Positions 6,986 to 61,583 are shown, counted from the stretch's first letter. The stretch is 64,000 nucleotides of DNA from Minisyncoccota bacterium (GCA_017991475.1 JAGOQK010000003.1:848-64847); one strand, 5' to 3'. Numbers and translations: made by a program. Notes: a model not told the origin generated them from the sequence alone.

Positions 6986-7246
6986 TTAAATTCTCTTGAG
7001 TGCGGCCATAACACGAGACTTGGTACGACTTGCGGTGTTGGCCTTGATATAGCCAGTCTTAGAAGCCTTGTCGAGCGACTGATAGATGGACGGAATGAGT
7101 TTTTCTGCAGCTTTCTTATCTTTTGCAGCAACGAGCTTGCGGAACTCCTTCATTCCCTTCTCGATAGCAGACTTGCGACGGAGGTTGAAAACACGCTTCT
7201 TCTTCGATGCGCGGAGTGCTTTGTGAGCTGATGAGGTGATAGGCAT
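6986..7246 (-). CDS. rpsT: 30S ribosomal protein S20
   Basis: 86 aa basic protein with a SAHKALRASKKKRVFNLRRKS-type N-terminus typical of S20. Confidence 0.9.
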   Translation of the reverse strand: MPITSSAHKALRASKKKRVFNLRRKSAIEKGMKEFRKLVAAKDKKAAEKLIPSIYQSLDKASKTGYIKANTASRTKSRVMAALKRI

Positions 7247-7314
7247 AGGTTATATATTTTCGTATGTCAGGCCAAGATACCATGGCAGGCGAAGAAAGTA
7301 AAGCTTTAATCACT

Positions 7315-7420
7315 GTGAGGAAGACATGTGTGTTTCTGACGGTGCTTCGTTGTATTTGTACACTACACTTTAAAGAACCGTTCTGCGAAGCACCGTCAGA
7401 AACACACATGTCTTCCTCAC
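7315..7420. repeat. Long perfect inverted repeat (35-bp arms, about 36-nt loop) in the divergent rpsT/ruvA intergenic region
   Basis: GTGAGGAAGACATGTGTGTTTCTGACGGTGCTTCG ... CGAAGCACCGTCAGAAACACACATGTCTTCCTCAC, exact complement; shares the CATGTGTGTTTCTGA-like motif with hairpins at 12196, 31209 and 36972. Confidence 0.85.
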
Positions 7421-7445
7421 GGTGCCTTATTTGCTATACTAACCC

Positions 7446-8031
7446 CATGATCTCCTACCTTCGTGGCCCCATCATCGAACTCGGCACTCGCTATGCCGTT
7501 CTCGATATGAGCGGGCTCGGCTACAAGGTCTATACGACCGATGACACTATCCATACCCTCAAGGTCGGGCAGGAAGTCACCTTCTGGGCGCATACCATCG
7601 TCCGTGAGGATGCGCTCGATCTCTACGGCTTCACTTCACAGCGAGAACGCTCATTCTTCGAGCTCCTCATCGGCATTTCAGGAATAGGTCCCAAGAGTGC
7701 CCTCAATATCCTCTCACTCGTCTCAGCTGATACTCTCGCGAGCTCTATCCGCAGTGGCTCAGTCGCGCACCTAGTCAAAGTTTCTGGAATTGGTCGGAAG
7801 ACTGCAGAGAAGATCGTCCTCGAACTCAAAGACAAGCTCGCAGGTTCATCATTCCACTCAGACGACCCTACCCTCTCAGCTGGCATGTCGAGCGATATGG
7901 ATGCACTCGAAGCCCTCCGCGCACTGGGGTATGAAACTGATGAGGCGCGTGATGCATTGAAAAAGATTCCTACAGATATCACTGATACGGGCAAGAAGGT
8001 GAAGGCGGCTCTCAAGGAGTTGGGGAGGTAA
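7446..8031 (+). CDS. ruvA: Holliday junction DNA helicase subunit RuvA
   Basis: MISYLRGPIIEL... N-terminus, HhH motifs (GIGPKSALNIL, VSGIGRKTAEKIV) and C-terminal RuvB-interaction domain. The longer ORF in the track (from 7264) runs through the hairpin and is rejected. Confidence 0.9.
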
Positions 8032-8258: not shown

Positions 8259-8777
8259 ATGAAGAAAAAACCAATCAATAACTCCGGCGAGCTTATTATC
8301 TATTCAGGCAAGAACGGTGGCGTTGAGTTGCGTGCGGATTCCAAAAAAGAAACTATCTGGGCTACACAAGCACAAATTGCCGAACTATTTGAGGTAAACT
8401 CACAGGCAATCACAAAACACCTAGGAAACATATACTCCGAAGGTGAGTTATCCAGGCGGTCAACTTGTTCCAAAATGGAACAAGTTCAACATGAGGGAAA
8501 TCGACACGTCAGACGCAAAGTTGAATTTTATAACCTCGACGCCATTATCGCAGTCGGATATCGAGTCAACTCCAAACAAGCTACCCGATTCCGCATCTGG
8601 GCAACCCGAACTCTCCGCGAACACCTCATCAAAGGCTTCACTATCGATATGAAGAAGATCGAAGGTACAGCATCTGGATTCGCTGACCTCCGTAAAACCG
8701 TTGATTTCATCGAGTCGCGAGCTCAAGGTCGTGTACAAGGTACTGTCGTAGTGAAGCTCAAGAAGGAGTTGTTGTAA
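8259..8777 (+). CDS. RhuM-family (virulence-protein RhuM / Fic-associated DNA-binding) protein
   Basis: Conserved RhuM core: KNGGVELRADSKKETIWATQAQIAELFEVNSQAITKHLGNIYSEGEL ... VRRKVEFYNLDAIIAVGYRVNSKQATRFRIWATRTL. Start set at MKKKPINN; the upstream extension is likely untranslated. Confidence 0.7.
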   Translation: MKKKPINNSGELIIYSGKNGGVELRADSKKETIWATQAQIAELFEVNSQAITKHLGNIYSEGELSRRSTCSKMEQVQHEGNRHVRRKVEFYNLDAIIAVGYRVNSKQATRFRIWATRTLREHLIKGFTIDMKKIEGTASGFADLRKTVDFIESRAQGRVQGTVVVKLKKELL

Positions 8778-9656: not shown

Positions 9657-10925
9657 ATGCTAGATTTAACTCTCAACAAAATCCGCCGACTCATTCCTGC
9701 AAAGGCCTTCACGGCTCTCCAGGGACCCTACCATTGGACACTCTCTTTCCTCGCAGCACTCTGGTATCGATTCCCTTCTCGCAAGATCAAGGTCATCGCC
9801 GTGACTGGTACCAAAGGCAAGAGTTCGACCGTCGAGATCCTCAACGCAATCATGGAAGAAGCTGGATACAAAACCGCACTCTCGAATACTATTCGCTTCA
9901 AGGTCGGAGATATTTCTTCGGAGAATCTCTACAAGATGAGCATGCCCGGAAGATTCTTCGTACAAAAGATCATCAGGAAAGCCGTGAACAATGGTTGCCA
10001 ATACATGATCATGGAGATGACATCTCAGGGAGCACTTCTCCATCGTCACCGCTTCATCCAGATGGACGCATTCGTCTTCACCAACCTCTCCCCTGAACAT
10101 ATCGAGGCTCACGGATCATATGAGAATTATGCTCAGTCGAAACTCTCGATCGCGCGTCAGCTCGGCAAATCCAAGAAGCAGAATCGCATACTCATCGTCA
10201 ATGCTGATGACGCGGCGGCTGACCGATTCATGGAATGCGACGCTGATCGAAAAACAAGTTTCAGTATCCACGATGTCGAACCGTATGAAATCAAAAAGGA
10301 AGGTATAGAGTTTACTCTCGATGGAAGACGTGTCCGGTCGCACCTCTCTGGCCTCTTCAATCTCTACAACATCACTGCAGCCATCACTGCTGCACGGAGT
10401 CAAGATGTAGGCTTGAATGAGATCGTGCGCGCAATCGAGAATTTCAATGGCATACCAGGTCGTGTGCAGAGAATAGAATCGGGTCAAGACTTCACAGTCA
10501 TCGTCGACTATGCGCACACCGCAGACTCACTCGAGAAGCTCTACCAGGTGTTCCAATCATCGAGGAACATCTGTGTGCTTGGAGGTACTGGCGGCGGTCG
10601 CGACACGAGTAAGCGCGAAATTATGGGCAAAATTGCAGACACATACTGTGATGAGATTATTTTGACCGACGAAGATCCGTACGACGAAGATCCGAATAAG
10701 ATCGTTGCCGATGTCGCCAAGGGCATCTCAACTCAGAAACCGACCATCATCATGGATCGTCGCGAAGCCATCCGTGAGGCTATCAAGCGTGCGAAGACCG
10801 GAGATGCAATACTCATCACCGGCAAAGGGACGGATCCGTATATCATGGGTGCCAAAGGAACCAAGGTGCCGTGGAGTGATGCGAAGGTGGCGAGAGAAGA
10901 GATTGAGAAAAGAATTTCTATATAG
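9657..10925 (+). CDS. murE: Mur ligase family protein, most like MurE (UDP-MurNAc-L-Ala-D-Glu:diamino acid ligase)
   Basis: P-loop VIAVTGTKGKSST, central Mur-ligase domain and VDYAHTADSLEKL motif. Start is uncertain (9603 or 9657). Confidence 0.7.
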   Translation: MLDLTLNKIRRLIPAKAFTALQGPYHWTLSFLAALWYRFPSRKIKVIAVTGTKGKSSTVEILNAIMEEAGYKTALSNTIRFKVGDISSENLYKMSMPGRFFVQKIIRKAVNNGCQYMIMEMTSQGALLHRHRFIQMDAFVFTNLSPEHIEAHGSYENYAQSKLSIARQLGKSKKQNRILIVNADDAAADRFMECDADRKTSFSIHDVEPYEIKKEGIEFTLDGRRVRSHLSGLFNLYNITAAITAARSQDVGLNEIVRAIENFNGIPGRVQRIESGQDFTVIVDYAHTADSLEKLYQVFQSSRNICVLGGTGGGRDTSKREIMGKIADTYCDEIILTDEDPYDEDPNKIVADVAKGISTQKPTIIMDRREAIREAIKRAKTGDAILITGKGTDPYIMGAKGTKVPWSDAKVAREEIEKRISI

Positions 10926-12177
10926 ACTTCACTGAATACAATCCATTCAACTTCTCCACTGTCTTCGGTCCAATTATTCCCGTTCCTCCGAGACCATGTT
11001 TGTCTTGAAATGCCTTCACTGCCTCTCTGGTACACGGTCCGATCTTCCCTGTTCGTGGACAATCATTCTTGTTTCTACTTCCCGGAGGATATACCCCGTC
11101 GAGGAGAAGCGCGGTCTGGAGCGCATACACATCACGCACTGAAGCTGCTGTCTCACTGAACGAAGCTCCCCAGGTGTGTGGGAGCATCAGTGTATCGTAA
11201 CTTGCCGCAGCGACGGTTGTCTTGCCCTGATGGAAGAAATCCTCGAGACCGAGATAGGTTTGATACGCGAGATCCTTGATCGCAAGAGTGCGTGCCTCTG
11301 GATCTACTATCTGCGGCTCGTATATATAGGCATACTCGATGAGCAAACTCGCAGCATCGGCAGTATTGTTAGCGCCGATTGCGATAAGTTCGCGCTCGTC
11401 CACAATGCCACCTGATTCCCCTTGATGATCAGAGACTGCGTTGTACTTCGCGAGGCGCTTGAATACCGTCTGTGCAATAGCGCGCGTGGTCGTACTGTTC
11501 AAGTACTGCGCCTCCGGAACATATATGGAAAAACCGCTGTATTCACCCGGGGTCATCCATCCATGGCCAGGATAATCGTTGAAGTGAACATGGATCGCAA
11601 TGTCGACTGCGTTCTCATTGGACCACTTGGTGATGCCGTAGAGACGATATGCAACGTTACTCGGGGCAGTATTGTGATGCACTTTCGGAACGAAGTCTTG
11701 AGAACCGAACTGAGCGACACGACGGAGCGATTCTTCTTTGTGCGCCTTCTGCCACTCGATGATACTATCCCATGAATTCGTAAAATAATTCTGGAAAGTC
11801 GGGTTCCACGCTTTGCCATCACGAGGAATGATGACTTCATACTTGCTGTTTGAACCAAGAAATCCAGAAAGTTCCTGAGCGAGCTGTACGGTAAGGTCGC
11901 GCTCCTTGAGGTCACCATACTCAGCACCTCCATATCCTGGTTCATGTCCTGGCATGAGGAGTACGCGTATCTTGGCCTTACCTCGCTCGGCATCAACAGT
12001 ATATTTCTTTTGAAGTTCAGCGATGGTGCGCGGGTTGTGAGTGACAACTGCAGCGATCTGTCCGCCGAGATTCTCTATGTATGCCGCGAGACGGCCTGCC
12101 TGTTCTGGAAATTGCGTCGCCAGCCAGGGCGTAAGGAACAAGCTTATGAGTATGGCGAGTGCGATATAGTGACGCAT
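10918..12177 (-). CDS. N-acetylmuramoyl-L-alanine amidase (Amidase_3) with C-terminal PG_binding_1 domain
   Basis: LLMPGHEPGYGGAEY and IAIHVHFND Amidase_3 motifs; C-terminal TREAVKAFQDKHGLGGTGIIGPKTVEKL. Signal-peptide-like start MRHYIALAILISLFL. Confidence 0.8.
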   Translation of the reverse strand: MRHYIALAILISLFLTPWLATQFPEQAGRLAAYIENLGGQIAAVVTHNPRTIAELQKKYTVDAERGKAKIRVLLMPGHEPGYGGAEYGDLKERDLTVQLAQELSGFLGSNSKYEVIIPRDGKAWNPTFQNYFTNSWDSIIEWQKAHKEESLRRVAQFGSQDFVPKVHHNTAPSNVAYRLYGITKWSNENAVDIAIHVHFNDYPGHGWMTPGEYSGFSIYVPEAQYLNSTTTRAIAQTVFKRLAKYNAVSDHQGESGGIVDERELIAIGANNTADAASLLIEYAYIYEPQIVDPEARTLAIKDLAYQTYLGLEDFFHQGKTTVAAASYDTLMLPHTWGASFSETAASVRDVYALQTALLLDGVYPPGSRNKNDCPRTGKIGPCTREAVKAFQDKHGLGGTGIIGPKTVEKLNGLYSVKSI

Positions 12178-12195
12178 AATGTTGCACATAGTATA

Positions 12196-12320
12196 GCAGA
12201 CACCGCGCAGGTGGCGCATGTGTTTTCAGCATGTCATGCTTTGGCGGTCATATAAAGTCCGGATCTTCAATCCTAAACATGACATGCTGAAAACACATGC
12301 GCCACCTGCGCGGTGTCTGC
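12196..12320. repeat. Long perfect inverted repeat (43-bp arms, about 39-nt loop), hairpin family member B
   Basis: GCAGACACCGCGCAGGTGGCGCATGTGTTTTCAGCATGTCATG ... CATGACATGCTGAAAACACATGCGCCACCTGCGCGGTGTCTGC. Loop (as reverse complement) begins TTTAGGATTGAA, as in the copies at 31209 and 36972. Confidence 0.9.
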
Positions 12321-12363: not shown

Positions 12364-13284
12364 ATGCCCGAACTCCCTGAAGTTCAAACGACCGTAAATG
12401 GTTTGAATGACCACGTCGTCGGTCTGACTATCACTGGTGTGTGGTCTGACTACAACAGTTCCCATTTCAAAGGATCAGATACCATCAAGGATCCGAGGTA
12501 TTTTGAGCTCCTCAAAAAAGAGATTACTGGCACGAGAATAGTTTCTGCTAAGCGACGTGCAAAAAACATACTGATCGAACTTTCGAGTGGTTCTACCCTG
12601 CTTGTCCACCTCAAGATGACCGGTCACCTACTCTATGGTTGCTACCTATTCAATACTGAGAGGAAAAAGGATCCCTGGGAAGCGATAAGTCCTGAACCAT
12701 TGAAGGATCCGAAGAATAGACATGTGCACTTCCTGATTTCATTCTCGAATAAAAAACACCTCGCCCTTTCTGATGTGCGAAAATTCGCCAAGGTTACTTT
12801 GCTCGACTCGAAGAAATTACACGACTCCGAGCACCTCAACGCAATCGGTCCAGAACCTCTAGATGAGTCATTCACATTCGAAAAGTTCACCTCAAGACTC
12901 AACCTTAAGGCAAGCGGAAAAATCAAGCAGGTTCTCATGGATCAGAGCATCATTGCGGGCGTCGGGAATATCTATGCTGACGAGTCACTTTGGCGTGCAG
13001 GAATACATCCAGCGCAAAAAGTATCTACAATTCCTGTGAAAGATATGAAATTACTTTTTACCGCGATGAAACAGACACTGTCGAAAGGAATACATTTTGG
13101 CGGTGACTCAACATCTGACTACCGAAATATTCATGGCGAGAAGGGTGAGTTCCATGAGACGCATCATGCATATCAACGAACAGGATCGAAATGTGACAAG
13201 AAGGGGTGTGGTGGGGCTATCGTGAGGATTGTGCTTGGTGGGAGAGGAACTCATTTCTGTGATAAGCATCAGCGATTGAGCTGA
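12364..13284 (+). CDS. mutM: Formamidopyrimidine-DNA glycosylase (Fpg/MutM, Fpg/Nei family) with insertions
   Basis: MPELPEVQTT N-terminus (catalytic Pro2), H2TH region, C-terminal zinc finger CDKKGCGGAIVRIVLGGRGTHFCDKHQ. Confidence 0.85.
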   Translation: MPELPEVQTTVNGLNDHVVGLTITGVWSDYNSSHFKGSDTIKDPRYFELLKKEITGTRIVSAKRRAKNILIELSSGSTLLVHLKMTGHLLYGCYLFNTERKKDPWEAISPEPLKDPKNRHVHFLISFSNKKHLALSDVRKFAKVTLLDSKKLHDSEHLNAIGPEPLDESFTFEKFTSRLNLKASGKIKQVLMDQSIIAGVGNIYADESLWRAGIHPAQKVSTIPVKDMKLLFTAMKQTLSKGIHFGGDSTSDYRNIHGEKGEFHETHHAYQRTGSKCDKKGCGGAIVRIVLGGRGTHFCDKHQRLS

Positions 13285-15629: not shown

Positions 15630-18281
15630 CTACTTCAACTCCCCCCAACTCTCCCCTATCGCACCATCTGCTCTCAGTGCAATCCCTTTGGTATCTTCAA
15701 GACTCATGACACCCTCCATGATCTTCTCGATCTCCTTCGAGACCGCTTCTGCCTTTTCATTCTTGATCTCATAGACGAGCTCGTCGTGAACTTGGAGCAA
15801 CGCATGAACATCAGCCTCAAGACCATTCTTCTTGATATACTCATCCACTCGTACCATCGCGATCTTGATCACGTCAGCCTCCGTTCCTTGGATCGGTGCA
15901 TTGATAGCCATACGCTCTGCCTGAGCGCGAATATAGGGAATCTTAGACTTGATACCCTCGAAGTATCTGCGACGACCATAGAAGGTCTCTGTGTAGCCAC
16001 GACGCGCAGTCTCAGCCTTCACTTCATTGAGGTAGTTCGCGAGCATTGAGAATGTGTGGAAATAATCATCATAGAATTTCTGCGCAGTCGGACGATCGGT
16101 GCCAATACTCTTCTGGAGCGACGTCACGCCCATACCATAGAGCATGCCGAAGTTGATGGCCTTGGCTTGGCGGCGCATCTCAGAGGTCACCTGATCCTGT
16201 GGGACCTTGAATACAAACGCTGCAACTGATGCATGCACATCCTGTCCTCCTTTGAAGATCTCTATCATCTTCTCGTCGTTCGACAAGAAAGCTGCGATAC
16301 GGAGCTCGATCTGGGAATAGTCGAAGCTGCAGAGCTTGTATCCCCTCTCAGCGATGAATGCATATCTGATGGCTTTGCCGAGCTCGGTCTTGATCGGGAT
16401 ATTCTGGAGATTGGGATTGATAGACGCCATACGACCTGTCGCTGATCCTGCTGATACGAGATGTGAGTGCAGACGATTATTCTTGTCGAGAAGTGGCGGT
16501 ATCGCATCGATATAAGTCGAAAGAAGTTTGGTAAGTTCACGGTACTCGAAGATGAGCTTCACGATCGGGTGAAGGTCGACGAGCTTTTCGAGCTCTGATT
16601 CTTTGGTCGAGCGTGCACCACCCGCAGTTTTCTTCATACCCTTTGCCGTCAATCCGAGCTTGTCAAAAAGTACTTCACCGAGCTGCTTGGGTGAACTGAT
16701 ATTGAATTCCATATCCGCAAGCTTCCAGATCTCCTTTTGCAGTCGATCAGCCTCTGCGTGATACTTTTTGCCGAGATCTTCGAGCAGTATCTTGTCTACC
16801 TTGATACCGCGCTCCTCCATCTTGTCAGTGATCGGAATGAGTGGAAGTTCAATATCTTCATACACCTTTCGCAGATTCCTTTTATCGAGCTCCGCAAATA
16901 CTGTCTCGCGCGCTTTCCCAAACTCATCCGTATTGGCAAAATTGAGCAGATCTTCTAGTGTCGGATTCGTCAGGTTCGAGTTCACCACCCATAGCGCAAG
17001 TAATGTCTCTTTGAGAACCGTCGGATCAATGGCGCTATTAAAAAGAGAGGTTGATGTGGGTGCGGGTGAAGTAGTGGTTGGATTTACATCTGCTGTGCTG
17101 TCATTCCCGCGCAGGCGGGAATCCAGGGTTTTACCAGGAACTTTATTTTTGCTATCCGTCGCCCCTGCGTTCGAGTCAGTGGTATGACCCTGGATTCCCG
17201 CCTGCGCGGGAATGACAGCAGAAGCCGCTCCTACACCCGCCCCTCCACCCACCACCTTCTGCAAGCGCTGCACCAACGTTCGAAATTCGAGTTGCGTCCA
17301 AAGCGTCGTCACCTTCTTGATATCCAATCCTTCCTTGAATGTCTTCTCCGGCAACACAAACTCCACCGGCGCCTTCCTATTGATCGTCGCGAGCATCTTG
17401 CTGAATTCTGCCTCCTCTTTGTTATCTTTCAAGAGCTGCACAATTCTCGGCGTAATCCCTGCATCCAAGAATTTTTTCTCATGGCCTGCCTCGAGCTCCT
17501 TATACATATTCTCGATCGTCCCAAATGTCGTGATGAGAATGGTTGCCGTCTTTTCACCGATCCCTTTCACGCCGATAATATTGTCCGATGGATCTCCACG
17601 AAGTCCCTTGTAGTCAGGAATGAGTTCTGGCCCAAATCCAAATCGCTCACGCACCATATCTTCGTCATAGATGATCGTATCCTTGATTCCCTTTTTCAGA
17701 GTATAAACGCGCACAGTTGTCCCTTTAACCAACTGTAAGGTATCCATATCACCCGAGGCGATAACAATCTCAAGTCGATGGTCAGCAGTCGGCAGTCCTT
17801 GCGACTTTAGTTTCGAGCGGCTCTGACTGTCGACTGCTGACTGTCGACTAATCACTTGTTCTACTATGGTTCCCAACATATCATCTGCTTCATATCCTTC
17901 CTTGCTATACATCGGTATGTCGAGCGCCGTGAATATATCCGGAGACCGATTGATCTGGGTGATGAGGTCATCATCAGTCTCCTTGCGTTGTGCTTTGTAG
18001 CCCTTGTACGCTTCATGGCGGAATGTGAGACCCTTGAGATCATAGCAAGCTACTACATAGTCAGGCTTGAGTTGCTCAATGATGCTGATGAGCATGGTCG
18101 AGAGACCGTAGAGTGCACCCGTAGGCTCGCCACGCGCCGTCGAGAAGTCAGGCAGGGCGTGGTAGGCACGATGAAGTATTGCGTGAGTATCGAGGAGTAC
18201 CAGGCGCTTGGTTTCTACCTTCTCGGCTTTTGGGGATTTTGCAGGCTTTTTTGTGGCTGGTGACATAGGGGCATTGTACAC
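15630..18281 (-). CDS. polA: DNA polymerase I (5'-3' exonuclease + 3'-5' exonuclease-like + polymerase domains) carrying an in-frame palindromic-repeat insertion in the inter-domain linker
   Basis: 883 aa. 5'-nuclease N-terminus (LVLLDTHAILHRAYHA), polymerase motifs (DYSQIELRIAAFLS, motif B RRQAKAINFGMLYG, motif C LQVHDELVYE). Linker contains ...AVIPAQAGIQ...SRLRGNDS... encoded by the hairpin repeat at 17097-17219. Confidence 0.95.
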   Translation of the reverse strand: MYNAPMSPATKKPAKSPKAEKVETKRLVLLDTHAILHRAYHALPDFSTARGEPTGALYGLSTMLISIIEQLKPDYVVACYDLKGLTFRHEAYKGYKAQRKETDDDLITQINRSPDIFTALDIPMYSKEGYEADDMLGTIVEQVISRQSAVDSQSRSKLKSQGLPTADHRLEIVIASGDMDTLQLVKGTTVRVYTLKKGIKDTIIYDEDMVRERFGFGPELIPDYKGLRGDPSDNIIGVKGIGEKTATILITTFGTIENMYKELEAGHEKKFLDAGITPRIVQLLKDNKEEAEFSKMLATINRKAPVEFVLPEKTFKEGLDIKKVTTLWTQLEFRTLVQRLQKVVGGGAGVGAASAVIPAQAGIQGHTTDSNAGATDSKNKVPGKTLDSRLRGNDSTADVNPTTTSPAPTSTSLFNSAIDPTVLKETLLALWVVNSNLTNPTLEDLLNFANTDEFGKARETVFAELDKRNLRKVYEDIELPLIPITDKMEERGIKVDKILLEDLGKKYHAEADRLQKEIWKLADMEFNISSPKQLGEVLFDKLGLTAKGMKKTAGGARSTKESELEKLVDLHPIVKLIFEYRELTKLLSTYIDAIPPLLDKNNRLHSHLVSAGSATGRMASINPNLQNIPIKTELGKAIRYAFIAERGYKLCSFDYSQIELRIAAFLSNDEKMIEIFKGGQDVHASVAAFVFKVPQDQVTSEMRRQAKAINFGMLYGMGVTSLQKSIGTDRPTAQKFYDDYFHTFSMLANYLNEVKAETARRGYTETFYGRRRYFEGIKSKIPYIRAQAERMAINAPIQGTEADVIKIAMVRVDEYIKKNGLEADVHALLQVHDELVYEIKNEKAEAVSKEIEKIMEGVMSLEDTKGIALRADGAIGESWGELK
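17097..17219. repeat. 123-bp palindromic element (33-bp perfect arms with a nested TTCCCGCGCAGGCGGGAA mini-palindrome) embedded in-frame in polA
   Basis: GCTGTCATTCCCGCGCAGGCGGGAATCCAGGGT ... ACCCTGGATTCCCGCCTGCGCGGGAATGACAGC. Length is a multiple of 3 and the polA ORF reads through it. Confidence 0.85.
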
Positions 18282-18862: not shown

Positions 18863-19408
18863 CTAATACTCCACCACCCTCTCATTCTCGCCCTCCCCGA
18901 CACTAAAGTTAATCTGAGAATACCCCTCAAGTTTCTCCACCGCCCCCTTCACATTTTCCGGCCACTCAATGAGGATGAGGTTATCTGGATCAGCAGCATA
19001 CTTCGCAAAATTGATCGCTTCCAATTCCTGGGCACGCTCGAGACGATATGCGTCGATGTGCACGAGACGCTTCCACGGAAAATTCGCTGCTCCGTTCTCT
19101 GTCAGATCCGCTACCACCTTCGTCGGATCAATATCATATATCTTCATAATCACAAATGTCGGACTCGTCACATCCTCTGTGATACCGAGATCCTTCGCCA
19201 CACATTTCGTAAAAGCAGTCTTCCCTGCACCGAGGTGACCTGAGAGACCGATAATTGTTGCTGTGTCTGTGTCATTCCCGCGAAGGCGAATTAGCAAATT
19301 CGTGCCTGGCCGGGAATCCATGCGATTCTTATTTTCAGAAATACCTCGCAGCCATTCATGGGCAATTTGGGCTGTTTCTTCTAGAGAATGTGATACTTGC
19401 TTAATCAT
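18863..19408 (-). CDS. tsaE: tRNA threonylcarbamoyladenosine biosynthesis ATPase TsaE (YjeE) with an in-frame repeat-derived insertion near the N-terminus
   Basis: P-loop LSGHLGAGKTAFTKCVAKDLG typical of TsaE; the preceding NKNRMDSRPGTNLLIRLRGNDTDT segment is encoded by the GTCATTCCCGCG...CCGGGAATCC repeat. Confidence 0.8.
   Translation of the reverse strand: MIKQVSHSLEETAQIAHEWLRGISENKNRMDSRPGTNLLIRLRGNDTDTATIIGLSGHLGAGKTAFTKCVAKDLGITEDVTSPTFVIMKIYDIDPTKVVADLTENGAANFPWKRLVHIDAYRLERAQELEAINFAKYAADPDNLILIEWPENVKGAVEKLEGYSQINFSVGEGENERVVEY
19271..19320. repeat. Palindromic element of the same family as 17097-17219 (GTCATTCCCGCGAAGGCG ... GGCCGGGAATCC) inside tsaE
   Basis: Shares the CATTCCCGCG / CGGGAATCC arms and encodes the same RLRGND peptide motif found in polA. 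Confidence 0.65.
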
Positions 19409-22498: not shown

Positions 22499-22903
22499 TG
22501 CAACGAAAACGCCTTTGACTTTCCTGTCAAAGGCGTGCGATGAAACTTTTCCCCATTGATTTCTAGGCGGGACGAGGGGTAGGATATCAGCAGATGAATA
22601 TCTCTGGTGAAGATCGATTCAAACTAGAGAATCTCTAAGCAATATCTCGGCGCGTGATGCGCCAAGCGAGGTAGAGTCCCGAGGATAATTTCAGTACGCA
22701 ATGCAAGCATTGCAACCAAAATGTCCTTAGCACTATACCCAAACCTGGGAAGGCCATTGCTTAGAGGTTCACGAGTTTGAAATGAGCGTGTCTATACAGT
22801 GATTAAGCATAGAAAAATGCGACACCTGTCGTTCGCATTCCTGATATGTATATTATACACTACCTATATGACTTCAAGAGTATCTTAGCATACCCTGATT
22901 AAA

Positions 22904-24505: not shown

Positions 24506-24508
24506 TTA

Positions 24509-24675
24509 AAGCGCACTGCCAAGAATGATACTTACGGCGTCGAGGACTTGTCCAAGTGAGCTGAAATTATTAAACATTCTGGCATGGGCTGCGTATGTCC
24601 CGTATGCCAGAATGTTTTGTAATTTCGCGAAACGAGTCCCGCAGACGCCGTAAGTATCATTCTTGGCAGTGCGCT
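24509..24675. repeat. Nested hairpin: outer 32-bp perfect inverted repeat enclosing an inner 14-bp inverted repeat, between yebC and ruvC
   Basis: AGCGCACTGCCAAGAATGATACTTACGGCGTC ... GACGCCGTAAGTATCATTCTTGGCAGTGCGCT; inner AACATTCTGGCAT...ATGCCAGAATGTT. Confidence 0.85.
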
Positions 24676-24687
24676 ATACTTATAACT

Positions 24688-28139: not shown

Positions 28140-28181
28140 ATAGATAAACAAAATGACACACTGCGCAGTGTGTCATTTTGT

Positions 28182-28442
28182 TTATCTGATATCTCCTATT
28201 TTACGAATAGATTGCTGTGAATTCGCCTCAATGAGAATAGCGTGTTTCTTGATAAAGATTTGAGACTTCTGCATTGCAGTAAGACCTTCGAGTACTGCAG
28301 TATCTGAGTTGAAATTGACCCTCTCTATCGGAATATCAAAACCTGCGTGTTTACGAATAGCATCACAAACTGACATGCGAACAACGACTTCTTGCGCATG
28401 TTTACCCTGAACTCGCTTGAAAAATTCGGATATATTAAGCAT
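28182..28442 (-). CDS. Small DUF721/DciA-like protein downstream of dnaN
   Basis: 86 aa, conserved position after dnaN; weak sequence-level support. Confidence 0.4.
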   Translation of the reverse strand: MLNISEFFKRVQGKHAQEVVVRMSVCDAIRKHAGFDIPIERVNFNSDTAVLEGLTAMQKSQIFIKKHAILIEANSQQSIRKIGDIR

Positions 28443-31208: not shown

Positions 31209-31328
31209 ACTGAAACACAGTGGTGTGCGTGTGTTTTCTCAGTGTCATGTTTATGATTGAGCACTAAGCTTAAAAAGACTGATAAAGCATGACACTGAGA
31301 AAACACACGCACACCACTGTGTTTCAGT
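31209..31328. repeat. Long perfect inverted repeat (41-bp arms, 38-nt loop), hairpin family member C, in the dnaA-rpmH intergenic region
   Basis: ACTGAAACACAGTGGTGTGCGTGTGTTTTCTCAGTGTCATG ... CATGACACTGAGAAAACACACGCACACCACTGTGTTTCAGT; loop TTTATGATTGAGCACTAAGC... Confidence 0.9.
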
Positions 31329-32596: not shown

Positions 32597-32632
32597 AATT
32601 CTAAACCCTAAGATTAGATCTTAGGGTTTTAT

Positions 32633-36518: not shown

Positions 36519-36953
36519 TCAGTTTTTGAGGCCCCCATTTGGAGGTCGAGTACCGCCCTGGTTCAAAGGTTGCTGTTTTTGGGCTGCTCTGCGCACACCT
36601 CCACTATTGAGGTGTGGTCCGCTAGATAGTGATCCCACAGAGATACCAGTTTTATCCTCGATACGAGTAGTGACCACTATGATAATCATAGCCAAAGTGA
36701 TGGTGGGAAGTGCTTGGATGGCAGGAATGATTTCAGCGATAGCGGAGACACCGCTTGCCGCCAGCCTTTTGCCATTCATGAATCCGAATCCAGACTTGAA
36801 CAAGTATATATTAATGAGGACCCAATAGGTTGGCCCCACAATGATGCCAACAATAGGTATGAGGGTCAGAAGGTCAGCAATGATAGCGGAACCTATAAGC
36901 AGAGCTGCTGCTTTGTTGCTGATACGATTTTTCTTGCCAGATTCTTGTTCCAT
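36519..36953 (-). CDS. Small polytopic membrane protein (3 TM) with Gly-rich C-terminus
   Basis: ORF in the T4SS-like block, directly downstream of hairpin D. Confidence 0.45.
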   Translation of the reverse strand: MEQESGKKNRISNKAAALLIGSAIIADLLTLIPIVGIIVGPTYWVLINIYLFKSGFGFMNGKRLAASGVSAIAEIIPAIQALPTITLAMIIIVVTTRIEDKTGISVGSLSSGPHLNSGGVRRAAQKQQPLNQGGTRPPNGGLKN

Positions 36954-36971
36954 AAGTTCATTATAGCAGAA

Positions 36972-37093
36972 GAGCCCTCATGTACGCGGTACGCATGTTT
37001 TGTGCATGTCATGTTTAGGATTGAACACTAGAAATAATGTTACCTACTAAGCATGACATGCACAAAACATGCGTACCGCGTACATGAGGGCTC
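36972..37093. repeat. Long perfect inverted repeat (42-bp arms, 38-nt loop), hairpin family member D, inside the T4SS-like gene block between the VirB4-like gene and the next gene
   Basis: GAGCCCTCATGTACGCGGTACGCATGTTTTGTGCATGTCATG ... CATGACATGCACAAAACATGCGTACCGCGTACATGAGGGCTC; loop TTTAGGATTGAACACTAGAAATAATGTTACCTACTAAG. Confidence 0.9.
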
Positions 37094-37104
37094 GTACCTC
37101 AATA

Positions 37105-38916
37105 TTACCCAGCCTGTTCCAGATCCTTCTTCGCCTGTTGAATACTCAAAACTTGAGCAGGATTGGTCGTGATGATCTGATCCTCGGTATATGATGCAAC
37201 GATCTTGATGGCGACGTGCTTGAGACCCACGAAGAATATACCCTCCCCCACATCTGATTCGAGCAAGAGGTACTTCTCTTCATCAGTCAGGTTAAATGTT
37301 TTCTGGATATGGTCGATGACTGTAGGAGACTGTTTGAGGAGTATTTGGATCGATGAGTTGGTTACGATAGGCAATCCATATGGTGAATTCAAGAAATCAT
37401 CCACGTCCTGGGTGATGGTAGCAAGTCCAAGGAAGTACTTGCGGCCGCGCTTGGCAAGGCTGAACAAGAATGAAGCTGTATCTTCAGACTTCATCATCCA
37501 CCACGCCTCGTCGATGACGAGCAGGCGCTTCTTGAGATTCTTGCGGATAGCATTCCAGATATAGTGAGTGACGATATACATAGCCACTGGCTTGAGTTCA
37601 TCTTCCATATCACGGAGCGAGAACACGGCAAATTTCTTGTTGATGTCGATGTTGGATGGCCTGTTGATGAAGCCTGACCATGTTCCTTTGGTGTACTTTG
37701 AGAGCCTCTGCACAAGCGATTCGCCGCCCTCCATTCCTGCAAGCACCAGCTCGAAGTCGGATAGGAGCGGTGGCTCAACGGTGCGGAAATCAGCCTCGGG
37801 CGTGATGTCTTTCAAGGCATAGGTCTCAGTGATGGCGCGATCGATGATAGCGTCTTCTTCTTGTGTGAGGCCTCCGAGCATGATGCGGAATAGTCCGACG
37901 AGGTTGATGATGTTCGAACGGAGTACATCAGCGCCAGATTCGTCCTCGCGTGGTATCGGGAGATCAAATGGGTTGATGTGGTGCTCAGAGTTGAGTGAGA
38001 TATTGAAGTACTTCCCTCCCGTAGCTTCTGCCATGTATTCGTACTCCTTCTCTGGATCGATGACGATAACATCCACATCGAACATGAGTGTTCGGAGGAT
38101 CTCAAGCTTAGTGTTGTAGGACTTTCCAGCACCGGCCACTGCGAATGTCACTGAGTTGTAGTTTTCAAGCGAGTAGCGATCAAAGAGAACAAGTGATGAG
38201 TTGTGACGATTGATACCGTAGAGGATACCCTTGTCTGAGGTGAGATCAAATGAAACGAATGGGAAAAGTGACGAGAGTGGCGAAGAGTTGAGCTTGGAGT
38301 GCACTGCGAGCTGGTCATCCGCGATAGGAATAACAGATTTGAATCCCTGCTCCTGCTGGAAGAGAGCTGGCTTCACATAGATGAGTTTGGATTCGAGGAT
38401 AGACTTGATCTCTGATTCGAGCTTATCGAGCTCGCCTTCGTTATCAGCGAATAGGGTGATATAAACACCGACGTCGAAGAGATGTTCCTGTGCCTGCATG
38501 AGTTGGTCGCGGAGCTGCTCGAGATCTTGGTATGCGGTATCGAGCGCTGGATCACGGACAAGGCCTTTCTCTTCCCTGTGTGAAATCTGACTTTGAACCT
38601 CAGCAACCTTCTTCTGGAAATGCCTCAAAATTTTTGCAGTATCGACGGGGTGTATGAATATCGAAATATTGAATATTTTGTCGAGATTGATGATCGGTGC
38701 AAACCAGCTCTCGTCAAGGAAGCGAGGGTATGAGATCACGAAAAGTGTGCGACCGACTTTCTCACCAAGATTGATCTCCTTTGGGCTTACCTTGAGTGCA
38801 GACGGCGAAATGACATCCTTGAGTTCTAGGACACCAGCCTGATAGATCTCTTCTGGCAGGATAGAGACAATAGGAGATGATTCTTTTTTGCCGAATAGTT
38901 TGTTGAGGAATGACAT
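37105..38916 (-). CDS. virB4: VirB4/TraC/CagE-family type IV secretion ATPase (Gram-positive-type, about 600 aa)
   Basis: Walker A SVTFAVAGAGKSYNTK, VIDPEKEYEYMAEATGGKYFNI, Walker B LLVIDEAWWMM, C-terminal LATITQDVDDF. Confidence 0.8.
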   Translation of the reverse strand: MSFLNKLFGKKESSPIVSILPEEIYQAGVLELKDVISPSALKVSPKEINLGEKVGRTLFVISYPRFLDESWFAPIINLDKIFNISIFIHPVDTAKILRHFQKKVAEVQSQISHREEKGLVRDPALDTAYQDLEQLRDQLMQAQEHLFDVGVYITLFADNEGELDKLESEIKSILESKLIYVKPALFQQEQGFKSVIPIADDQLAVHSKLNSSPLSSLFPFVSFDLTSDKGILYGINRHNSSLVLFDRYSLENYNSVTFAVAGAGKSYNTKLEILRTLMFDVDVIVIDPEKEYEYMAEATGGKYFNISLNSEHHINPFDLPIPREDESGADVLRSNIINLVGLFRIMLGGLTQEEDAIIDRAITETYALKDITPEADFRTVEPPLLSDFELVLAGMEGGESLVQRLSKYTKGTWSGFINRPSNIDINKKFAVFSLRDMEDELKPVAMYIVTHYIWNAIRKNLKKRLLVIDEAWWMMKSEDTASFLFSLAKRGRKYFLGLATITQDVDDFLNSPYGLPIVTNSSIQILLKQSPTVIDHIQKTFNLTDEEKYLLLESDVGEGIFFVGLKHVAIKIVASYTEDQIITTNPAQVLSIQQAKKDLEQAG

Positions 38917-60596: not shown

Positions 60597-61583
60597 ATGC
60601 GCTATACTATACCCATGTCGCATAATATCAAGGATCTCAAACAGCAATTCCTGGAATATATCGAGATCGAGAAGGGTCGATCTGTGAAAACTGTGCGAAA
60701 CTATGACTTTTTCATCACCAAATTCCTTCTCCAGGCCAAGATCAAGTACCCCGAAGACATTACAGCGGAAAAAGTCCGAGAATTCCGCCTCTGGCTCAAC
60801 CGCCAACCAGGTCAGAAGAGCCGAGGTAGGATCGAATCAAACACACTCAAGAAGAATACGCAGAATTATCATCTCATCGCCCTACGCACATTCCTGAAAT
60901 ATATGGCCAGGAGAGGGATCAAAACCCTCTCTCCAGAGATGATCGAGCTCGCCAAGGTGGGTCATCGCCAGATAGATCTCATTACGTCGTCCGAGCTGCG
61001 ACGCCTCCTCGATGCTCCTGATGGCGACTCCCCTGCTTCTTTGCGCGATCGCGCCATCCTCGAGCTCCTCTTCTCCACCGGTCTCCGTGTCGCTGAGCTC
61101 TGTTCCCTCAATCGTGATATTGATCTAACAGCAGACGAGTTCCCTATCAGAGGCAAGGGTGACAAAGTCCGCCCTGTATTCCTGTCCCCTGATGCAAAAT
61201 CAGCTCTCAAAAAGTATCTCGACGCTCGCCAAGACATGGGAGAAGCCCTCTTTGTCGAAATGAGTGAACGCAGCATGAAATCTGCCACCAAGATGGGTAC
61301 CAAAGGCAAAAAAGATGAATATCCGGGTGACAAACCACTCACCACTCGTTCTGTGGAGCGCATCGTGAAACGGTATGCCATCAAGGCAGGTATCTCAAAG
61401 AGAGTCACACCGCACGTCATCCGGCACTGCTTTGCCACTGATCTCCTCAGCAATGGCGCCGATATCCGCTCAGTCCAGATGCTTCTCGGTCACTCTGATA
61501 TCAGTACGACTCAGGTCTATACGCACGTGACAGATAGTGAGCTTCTCAGGGTGCACAAACAGTTTCACGGCAAGAGGAAGTAG
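60597..61583 (+). CDS. Tyrosine site-specific recombinase, XerC/XerD-like
   Basis: Catalytic residues in R...HxxR...Y context (VTPHVIRHCFATDLLSNGADIRSVQMLLGHSDISTTQVYTHV); SAM-like N-terminal domain. Confidence 0.85.
   Translation: MRYTIPMSHNIKDLKQQFLEYIEIEKGRSVKTVRNYDFFITKFLLQAKIKYPEDITAEKVREFRLWLNRQPGQKSRGRIESNTLKKNTQNYHLIALRTFLKYMARRGIKTLSPEMIELAKVGHRQIDLITSSELRRLLDAPDGDSPASLRDRAILELLFSTGLRVAELCSLNRDIDLTADEFPIRGKGDKVRPVFLSPDAKSALKKYLDARQDMGEALFVEMSERSMKSATKMGTKGKKDEYPGDKPLTTRSVERIVKRYAIKAGISKRVTPHVIRHCFATDLLSNGADIRSVQMLLGHSDISTTQVYTHVTDSELLRVHKQFHGKRK

Follow-up and report, generated by a model that had tools for sequence, protein, structure and literature searches.

Long hairpins with perfect arms as probable MITE/REPIN-like palindromic elements in intergenic DNA of a Paceibacteria clade

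Introduction

Hairpins whose long arms differ from copy to copy, yet pair exactly within each copy, raise the question of whether their pairing is selected or is written by a process that makes one arm from the other. The question is posed here by positions 12196 to 12320 of a 64,000-nucleotide stretch of DNA from Minisyncoccota bacterium (GCA_017991475.1, JAGOQK010000003.1:848-64847), referred to below as the window. A first-pass annotation of the window had proposed either a selected RNA or DNA hairpin or a templated fold-back mechanism. The DnaA and Fpg homologs are labeled as Patescibacteria, Paceibacteria/Paceibacterota, or "Candidatus Pacebacteria" metagenome-assembled genomes (MAGs). 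Repeat elements and mutational processes in the Patescibacteria (CPR) are almost unstudied, and a literature search for such repeats in CPR/Patescibacteria returned nothing specific. With a probability that we put at about 0.6, the hairpins are dispersed, non-autonomous, MITE/REPIN-like palindromic DNA elements of a Paceibacteria clade, with arms homogenized by template switching.

Structure of the hairpins

Four members of the family lie in the window. Copy A, on the plus strand at 7311 to 7424, has 39-bp arms (7311 to 7349 and 7386 to 7424) with one T·G mismatch and a 36-nt loop of type II (7350 to 7385; TTGTATTTGTACAC...CCGTTCTG). Copy B, on the minus strand at 12196 to 12320, has 43-bp arms (12196 to 12238 and 12278 to 12320) and a 39-nt loop (12239 to 12277) whose canonical orientation (TTTAGGATTGAAG...AAAG) is read on the minus strand. 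Copies C (31209 to 31328) and D (36972 to 37093), both on the plus strand, have arms of 41 bp (31209 to 31249 and 31288 to 31328) and 42 bp (36972 to 37013 and 37052 to 37093), respectively, and loops of 38 nt (31250 to 31287 and 37014 to 37051). The arms of B, C, and D contain 0 mismatches. These three had been annotated as hairpins with exact arms of 41 to 43 bp and loops of 38 to 39 nt, and both sequence reading and a repeat finder agree; the family of three is real, but its fourth member, A, had been missed.

When folded as single-stranded DNA, B, C, and D have energies of −55 to −63 kcal/mol (z = −15 to −20 relative to shuffles). The loops are AT-rich and the arms GC-richer, as read from the sequence. 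As had been noted, the loops of B, C, and D share their ends, starting with TTTAGGATTGA (one mismatch in C) and finishing with AAG, with B on the opposite strand, and the inner arms are semi-conserved. Aligned against one another, these three loops match with p ≤ 0.001; the loop of A matches copies in the related contig L072. The core pattern TGTCATG-N30-45-CATGACA occurs 3 times in the window, against 0.00 expected. A covariance model was built from seven members, taken from the window and relatives, and run with filters off. It matched exactly four places in the window, copies A to D, at 101 to 119 bits. Copy A scored 101 bits on the plus strand versus 67 bits on the minus strand, and copy B scored 116.9 bits on the minus strand. 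The next-best match, at 47 bits, belongs to a different hairpin family; the window therefore contains no degenerate copies.

Neither the window nor the relatives contain a second match to the outer arms. The earlier statement that the outer 20 bp differ completely was too strong, as paralogous arms are 61 to 68% identical overall in gapped alignment; among orthologs, the outer arms at the B site are well conserved.

Orthologous sites

The relatives sampled comprise approximately 1.2 Mb of syntenic DNA with DnaA identities of 60 to 97%. The coding DNA of L076 is only 77 to 82% identical to that of the window, so neutral sites are far diverged. At the A site, the hairpin is absent from L156 and L159, and the −10 motif of ruvA is still there. 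At the B site, L159 has a hairpin (9836 to 9954) with 43-bp perfect arms and a 33-nt loop, and L161 and L163 have hairpins with 46-bp perfect arms and a 14-nt loop that corresponds to the window loop minus about 25 nt. The arms of these B-site hairpins are 74 to 80% identical to those of window copy B, with different inner stems. Only a stub with a 10-bp stem is found in L156 and L158, which would be explicable by a deletion between two CCGC repeats, and the more distant L164 has nothing at this site. At the C site, L076 has a hairpin (1585 to 1686) with 45-bp perfect arms and a 12-nt loop, L074 has one (9794 to 9909) with 38-bp perfect arms, and L072 has a clean empty site. At the D site, the hairpin of L072 (4336 to 4455) has 42-bp perfect arms with 56% identity to those of window copy D; in L074 the two genes are 9 nt apart, with no hairpin, and the hairpins of other relatives are short.

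The comparison of orthologous intergenic regions, which the first-pass annotation had proposed, thus finds each of the four sites polymorphic for hairpin presence. Judged from these alignments, the hairpins at the B, C, and D sites are evidently old residents.

Evolution of the arms

Orthologous arms are 46 to 80% identical, with 7 to 15 substitutions and 2 to 7 gap columns per pair, and substitutions and indels together number 7 to 21. Because every orthologous copy at the B, C, and D sites has 0 mismatches, each of these changes, indels included, has been mirrored in the other arm. Across the family alignment, 33 of 36 pairs carry double-sided changes (83 pair-cells two-sided versus 1 one-sided). 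The sole one-sided change is the T·G of copy A. Among about 250 pair-cells, only one is of the G·U type, and bulges are absent. A relaxed scan that allowed up to seven mismatches in 40-bp arms recovered 31 distinct long hairpins from the approximately 1.2 Mb of relatives and window, versus 0 from shuffled sequence. None of the 31 has more than 3 mismatches, and together they have 15 mismatches in 1047 arm bp.

Pairing is therefore kept through change, as had been claimed. Of the accounts on offer, a templated fold-back that makes one arm from the other fits better, given the mirrored indels, the near absence of G·T intermediates, and the flipped loops described below. Elements in related genomes have perfectly matched arms too, which indicates that the arms are not left to decay independently. 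Mirrored indels and missing mismatch or wobble intermediates point to a copying process and make selection on pairing implausible. Template switching between the arms of inverted repeats homogenizes the arms and inverts the spacer (PMC8604942) and, by one proposal, both generates perfect hairpins and keeps them so (PMC8794818). Since arm homogenization and spacer inversion are its known footprint, we take templated arm copying as the mechanism; that the copying proceeds by template switching is what the expected footprints, read from alignments, suggest. Standard structure-conservation screens would misread such hairpins as RNA covariation.

Loop orientation and loop types

Relative to the flanking genes, the loop is inverted at the D site (window versus L072) and at the C site (window versus L076); at the B site, its orientation is the same between orthologs. 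Type I loops are common to window copies B, C, and D, and type II loops are common to the D-site copy of L072 and the L072 hairpin at 8496. The same short loop variant occurs in the JACCDJ contigs L163 (B site) and L076 (C site), which come from the same metagenome and presumably belong to one organism. The C-site loop of L076 is closer to B-type loops than to its ortholog in window copy C, and loop types agree better within a genome than between orthologs. The outer arms of the B site match the flanks in conservation, while the inner stem and loop have turned over. The agreement of loops within genomes and the turnover of the B-site interior suggest that a central cassette is exchanged between copies, which could occur by ectopic conversion or by re-invasion of hairpin tips.

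Mobility

Homologous loops and inner stems in all four copies imply dispersal from a common source. A sister hairpin family has transposed with an 8-bp target-site duplication (TSD). Its element, with 35-bp arms and a 63-nt loop, lies at 15917 to 16049 in L079 and at 15875 to 16005 in L136, which are 98% identical, and the two positions are 48 bp apart. The 8-bp direct repeats flanking the element (AACATTTC, GATAATTC) are single-copy at the other genome's empty site. Between L079 and L136, the 3-nt termini of the element are inverted and the loop is not.

Immediately next to copies A, C, and D there is no direct repeat of ≥6 bp, and the TSD candidates of the family are weak (6/8 at A; at B, a 6-mer 8 nt from each end). 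No transposase, HUH/RAYT (Y1_Tnp) enzyme, or reverse transcriptase was found in the window (Pfam, 30 proteins) or in the annotated loci of relatives. A search of about 1.2 Mb for inverted repeats up to 4 kb apart yielded no IS-like parent and no transposon with terminal repeats matching the arms. The only tyrosine recombinase in the window (60597 to 61583) is Xer-like and distant from the hairpins. No TSD survives around A to D, whose past transposition is thus inferred. The earlier opinion that the hairpins fit no IS or MITE class was, however, too strong: multiple copies and presence/absence polymorphism resemble non-autonomous palindromic mobile DNA, and the TSDs of the sister family are further evidence.

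Scanning a contig collection with GTCATGTTTAKGATTGA gave 70 single chance matches in unrelated taxa, none within a hairpin. The full loop pattern and the C and D outer arms had 0 matches in viral contigs, leaving a phage origin or spacer-like arms unsupported. Insertion into an existing palindrome, or fold-back copying of a flank, was considered and rejected, because the empty C site of L072 and the hairpin-free A sites have neither a palindrome nor an arm-like flank; for the B-site stub of L158, a deletion between CCGC repeats is an explanation of at least equal merit.

Proposed origin and maintenance

We propose that copies dispersed among several intergenic positions of an ancestral genome and were then inherited vertically, with occasional loss of a copy through central or complete deletion. 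After mutation of an arm, template switching across the folded hairpin would copy one arm onto the other, by quasipalindrome correction or intra-element gene conversion, and the stem would stay perfect. The loop would flip through the same process or through recombination between the perfect arms, and the central part (inner arms plus loop) would be exchanged between copies within a genome. Copies would survive only at harmless sites, mostly directly upstream of −35-independent extended −10 promoters. The hairpins are probably selfish elements acting at the DNA level rather than RNA genes, and A to D appear to have no host function. The family is an unusually clean natural record, in which repeats of about 40 bp have stayed perfect through dozens of mirrored changes and loop flips. 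It would extend the template-switch account of "compensatory" hairpin evolution from single events to the long-term upkeep of a repeat family.

Comparison with known systems

Copies A to D are a variant of hairpin-forming miniature repeats. By defining features, they are not REPINs, classical MITEs, attC sites, terminators, or Rfam families. Their unusual features are the long-term, exact, concerted evolution of the arms, the flipping of the loop, and the exchange of the center within a genome.

REPINs are extragenic elements of roughly 100 nt with two inverted arms and a spacer that are predicted to form single-stranded DNA hairpins and are mobilized by RAYTs (PMC3116915). Copies A to D are likewise non-autonomous, multi-copy, and long-lived in lineages. 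In REPINs, however, the arms (REP motifs of 20 to 25 nt) are conserved and recognized by the enzyme, and the spacer is free, whereas in A to D the loop and inner stem are common and the outer arms diverge, the arms being 61 to 68% identical between copies. The family's arms are also longer (39 to 47 bp) and perfect, and no RAYT/Y1 transposase was found in the window or in the annotated loci of relatives.

Bacterial MITEs (Correia/NEMIS, ERIC, RUP) resemble A to D in being small, non-coding, and intergenic, with inverted-repeat ends; the role of terminal inverted repeats is filled in A to D by whole arms of 39 to 43 bp. Insertion polymorphism, four copies in 64 kb, and a sister family with an 8-bp TSD add to the likeness. 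MITE copies, however, are alike and pair imperfectly inside, whereas A to D are perfect within a copy and divergent between copies; A to D also have no visible TSD, and no parent IS was found in the window or in about 1.2 Mb of relatives' loci.

Quasipalindrome correction and template switching lead to arm homogenization, one-step "compensatory" changes, spacer inversion, and stem extension (PMC8604942, PMC8794818, PMC13100816), and the family likewise shows mirrored substitutions and indels and flipped loops. Known cases are mostly single events in arms of about 5 to 20 bp, whereas here the process would have been continuous, in 40-bp arms of a repeat family and over long divergence. Hairpin repeats of organelle genomes also colonize intergenic regions in genomes that are small and reduced (PMC2800124). 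The hosts and sequences of these elements and of the Rickettsia palindromic elements (RPEs) are unrelated to ours, and A to D are only intergenic. Integron attC sites are hairpins with structure more conserved than sequence, but they have imperfect stems with extrahelical bases and lie in cassette arrays beside IntI, whereas A to D are perfect and dispersed among core genes with no integron context.

Promoters and the case for host function

The gene contexts given in the first-pass annotation for B, C, and D stand, by Pfam. Copy A lies between divergent rpsT (S20; 6986 to 7246, minus strand) and ruvA (ATG at 7447), and copy B lies between a divergent Amidase_3 gene (start at 12177, minus strand) and fpg (ATG at 12364). 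Copy C lies between divergent dnaA and rpmH (L34), where it is flanked by two promoter-like sites and adjoins a conserved DnaA-box block. Copy D lies between a TraG-like ATPase gene (37105 to 38916, minus strand), 11 nt past its stop codon, and the next gene of a PrgI/TraC/TraG T4SS-like cluster.

Promoters of the clade resemble extended −10 boxes (TGNTATAMT) with an ATG 6 to 7 nt downstream (window 7432 to 7449, 12177 to 12198, and 36951 to 36968, and relatives), a pattern that suggests widespread leaderless transcripts and −35-independent promoters. The ruvA box (7432 to 7440, plus strand; TGCTATACT) is 7 nt from the base of copy A; its ATG follows 6 nt on, which makes a leaderless transcript probable. 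The box of the amidase gene (12190 to 12198, minus strand; TGCTATACT) has its TGC within the outer arm of copy B, and that of the gene at 36519 to 36953 (36960 to 36968, minus strand; TGCTATAAT) is 3 nt from the base of copy D, with the ATG 6 nt on. Distances of A, B, and D from these boxes are thus 0 to 7 nt. Relatives lacking the hairpins keep the same boxes, so the promoters are native rather than parts of the elements. A candidate promoter in the loop of copy D (TTGAAC-18-TACTAA) was rejected, as copies B and A do not conserve it and it is unlike the extended −10 consensus of these genomes.

This adjacency may reflect tolerance (the only free space, with −35-independent promoters), targeting, or regulation. 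If it is regulation, the hairpins would be host-functional DNA, namely, cruciforms upstream of extended −10 promoters or the origin that act as insulators, regulators, or protein sites, with arms selected for extrusion. Of 50 hairpin ends, 7 have an outward-facing extended −10 motif no more than 10 nt away, where the genome-wide density predicts 0.07; A, B, and C sit between divergent promoters. Upstream of dnaA, six lineages have hairpins of at least four sequence families. The B-, C-, and D-site hairpins have been retained across deep divergence, and AT-rich loops with GC-richer arms favor extrusion. Persistence at three sites in streamlined genomes, together with the recurrent hairpins upstream of dnaA, could mean a host function, and if the hairpins affect the adjacent promoters or the origin, they would constitute a novel means of regulation in minimal genomes. 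However, every one of the four sites lacks the hairpin in some relatives that have the same promoters, which favors tolerance over targeting or regulation, and adjacency to −10 boxes is expected anyway where intergenic DNA spans only tens of bases. Mirrored indels and missing single-mismatch intermediates are hard to obtain by selection, and another, selfish-looking hairpin family lies in frame within polA. We therefore consider a host function unlikely.

A related idea, which we regard as quite unlikely, is that the hairpins are not passive junk but belong to a structure-directed system peculiar to these reduced genomes. In one version, the loop and inner stem could be a very small mobile unit that targets the tips of hairpins already in place, which would explain loop variants that are common within a genome and different between orthologs. 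In another, flippable cruciforms near leaderless promoters or oriC could serve as invertible or supercoil-sensing regulators. Either the mobile tip module or the cruciform regulator would, if true, be a mechanism undescribed in bacteria.

RNA, terminator, and artifact readings

Structured RNA genes or cis-regulatory RNAs (RNase III substrates, REP-type 3′-end stabilizers, or small RNAs), with pairing selected in the transcript, would account for the very stable folds and the strong apparent covariation. Protection of mRNA ends would be conceivable for copy D, in the 3′ region of the TraG-like gene, and for the L072 hairpin at 8496, between convergent genes. This reading, the selected RNA hairpin of the first-pass annotation, is very unlikely to hold. 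A single G·U-type pair among the pair-cells and an absence of bulges contrast with the structured element at 22618 to 22781 of the same genomes, which is about 95% conserved and has G-U pairs and bulges, as a real structured RNA should. Sequence conservation between orthologous hairpins is poor, and the loops flip relative to the flanking genes. Copies A, B, and C lie upstream of both neighboring promoters, where transcription is not required. Rfam returned nothing at gathering thresholds and only eukaryotic miRNA-precursor models below them, generic matches that signify a long hairpin.

Long intrinsic (bidirectional) transcription terminators are highly improbable. Hairpins L072 8496 and L079 8360 do replace canonical bidirectional terminators of the window and L074, and copy D comes after a stop codon. 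The copies have no T/A tracts, however, and their loops are 36 to 39 nt; a terminator scan called none of them, the genes on either side of A, B, and C are transcribed divergently, and the canonical terminators of these genomes look quite different.

An assembly or library artifact (chimeric fold-back reads leaving false palindromes in a MAG) has a next to negligible chance of being correct, even though the window comes from a metagenome-assembled contig and short-read Logan contigs break at the hairpins: the hairpins are base-for-base the same in independent assemblies (L072/L077, L161/L163, L079/L136, L145-147, and L156/L157), diverged yet perfect arms occur at orthologous sites in different studies, and real inverted repeats that exceed the k-mer in length should break contigs. 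The hairpins thus break short-read assemblies of these genomes.

Other hairpins and structured elements

Other hairpin families of the clade have the same architecture, with perfect, copy-specific arms of 30 to 46 bp and a family-specific loop (L105 9783 to 9900 and 15875 to 15985; L079 8360; L106 791; L145 9770; L094 21099; L148 16492; and L164 6935). One widespread loop type among them contains two small covarying hairpins, GGATATTTTTCTGCTGAAAAATTCC and GCTCGCGCCGTCGCGC.

A different family has a 129-bp member inside polA (15630 to 18281, minus strand), at window 17094 to 17222, where it is read in frame as part of the DNA polymerase I linker. This hairpin encodes amino acids 354 to 396 of 883, and the PolA proteins of relatives have 845 to 846 amino acids. 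Each of its arms itself has the palindrome ATTCCCGCGCAGGCGGGAAT. Related sequence occurs at about 19262 to 19320 in the window, at 1971 to 2086 in L095, and at the D site in L088 and L142. We take this in-frame insertion to resemble RPEs.

A structured element of approximately 165 nt lies upstream of ruvB (22618 to 22781), with orthologs at 19046 to 19209 in L072, 18382 to 18551 in L074, and 18880 to 19025 in L159. It is about 95% identical where coding DNA is only about 78 to 82% identical, has imperfect stems with G-U pairs, and has no Rfam match; it is a candidate for an undescribed non-coding RNA. A nested hairpin with 35-bp outer and 23-bp inner arms (24507 to 24678) follows a TACO1/YebC-like gene, and a perfect, terminator-like 46-bp palindrome with A/T tracts (28142 to 28187) lies between convergent genes. 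The convergent site next to yidC has canonical bidirectional terminators in the window (32603 to 32629) and L074 (approximately 8490 to 8520) and long hairpins of two different families in L072 (8496 to 8603) and L079 (8360 to 8489). Divergence between L079 and L136 is mosaic, with long, near-identical stretches alternating with patches of 10 to 17% divergence, a pattern suggesting that populations of related Patescibacteria often undergo homologous recombination with one another.
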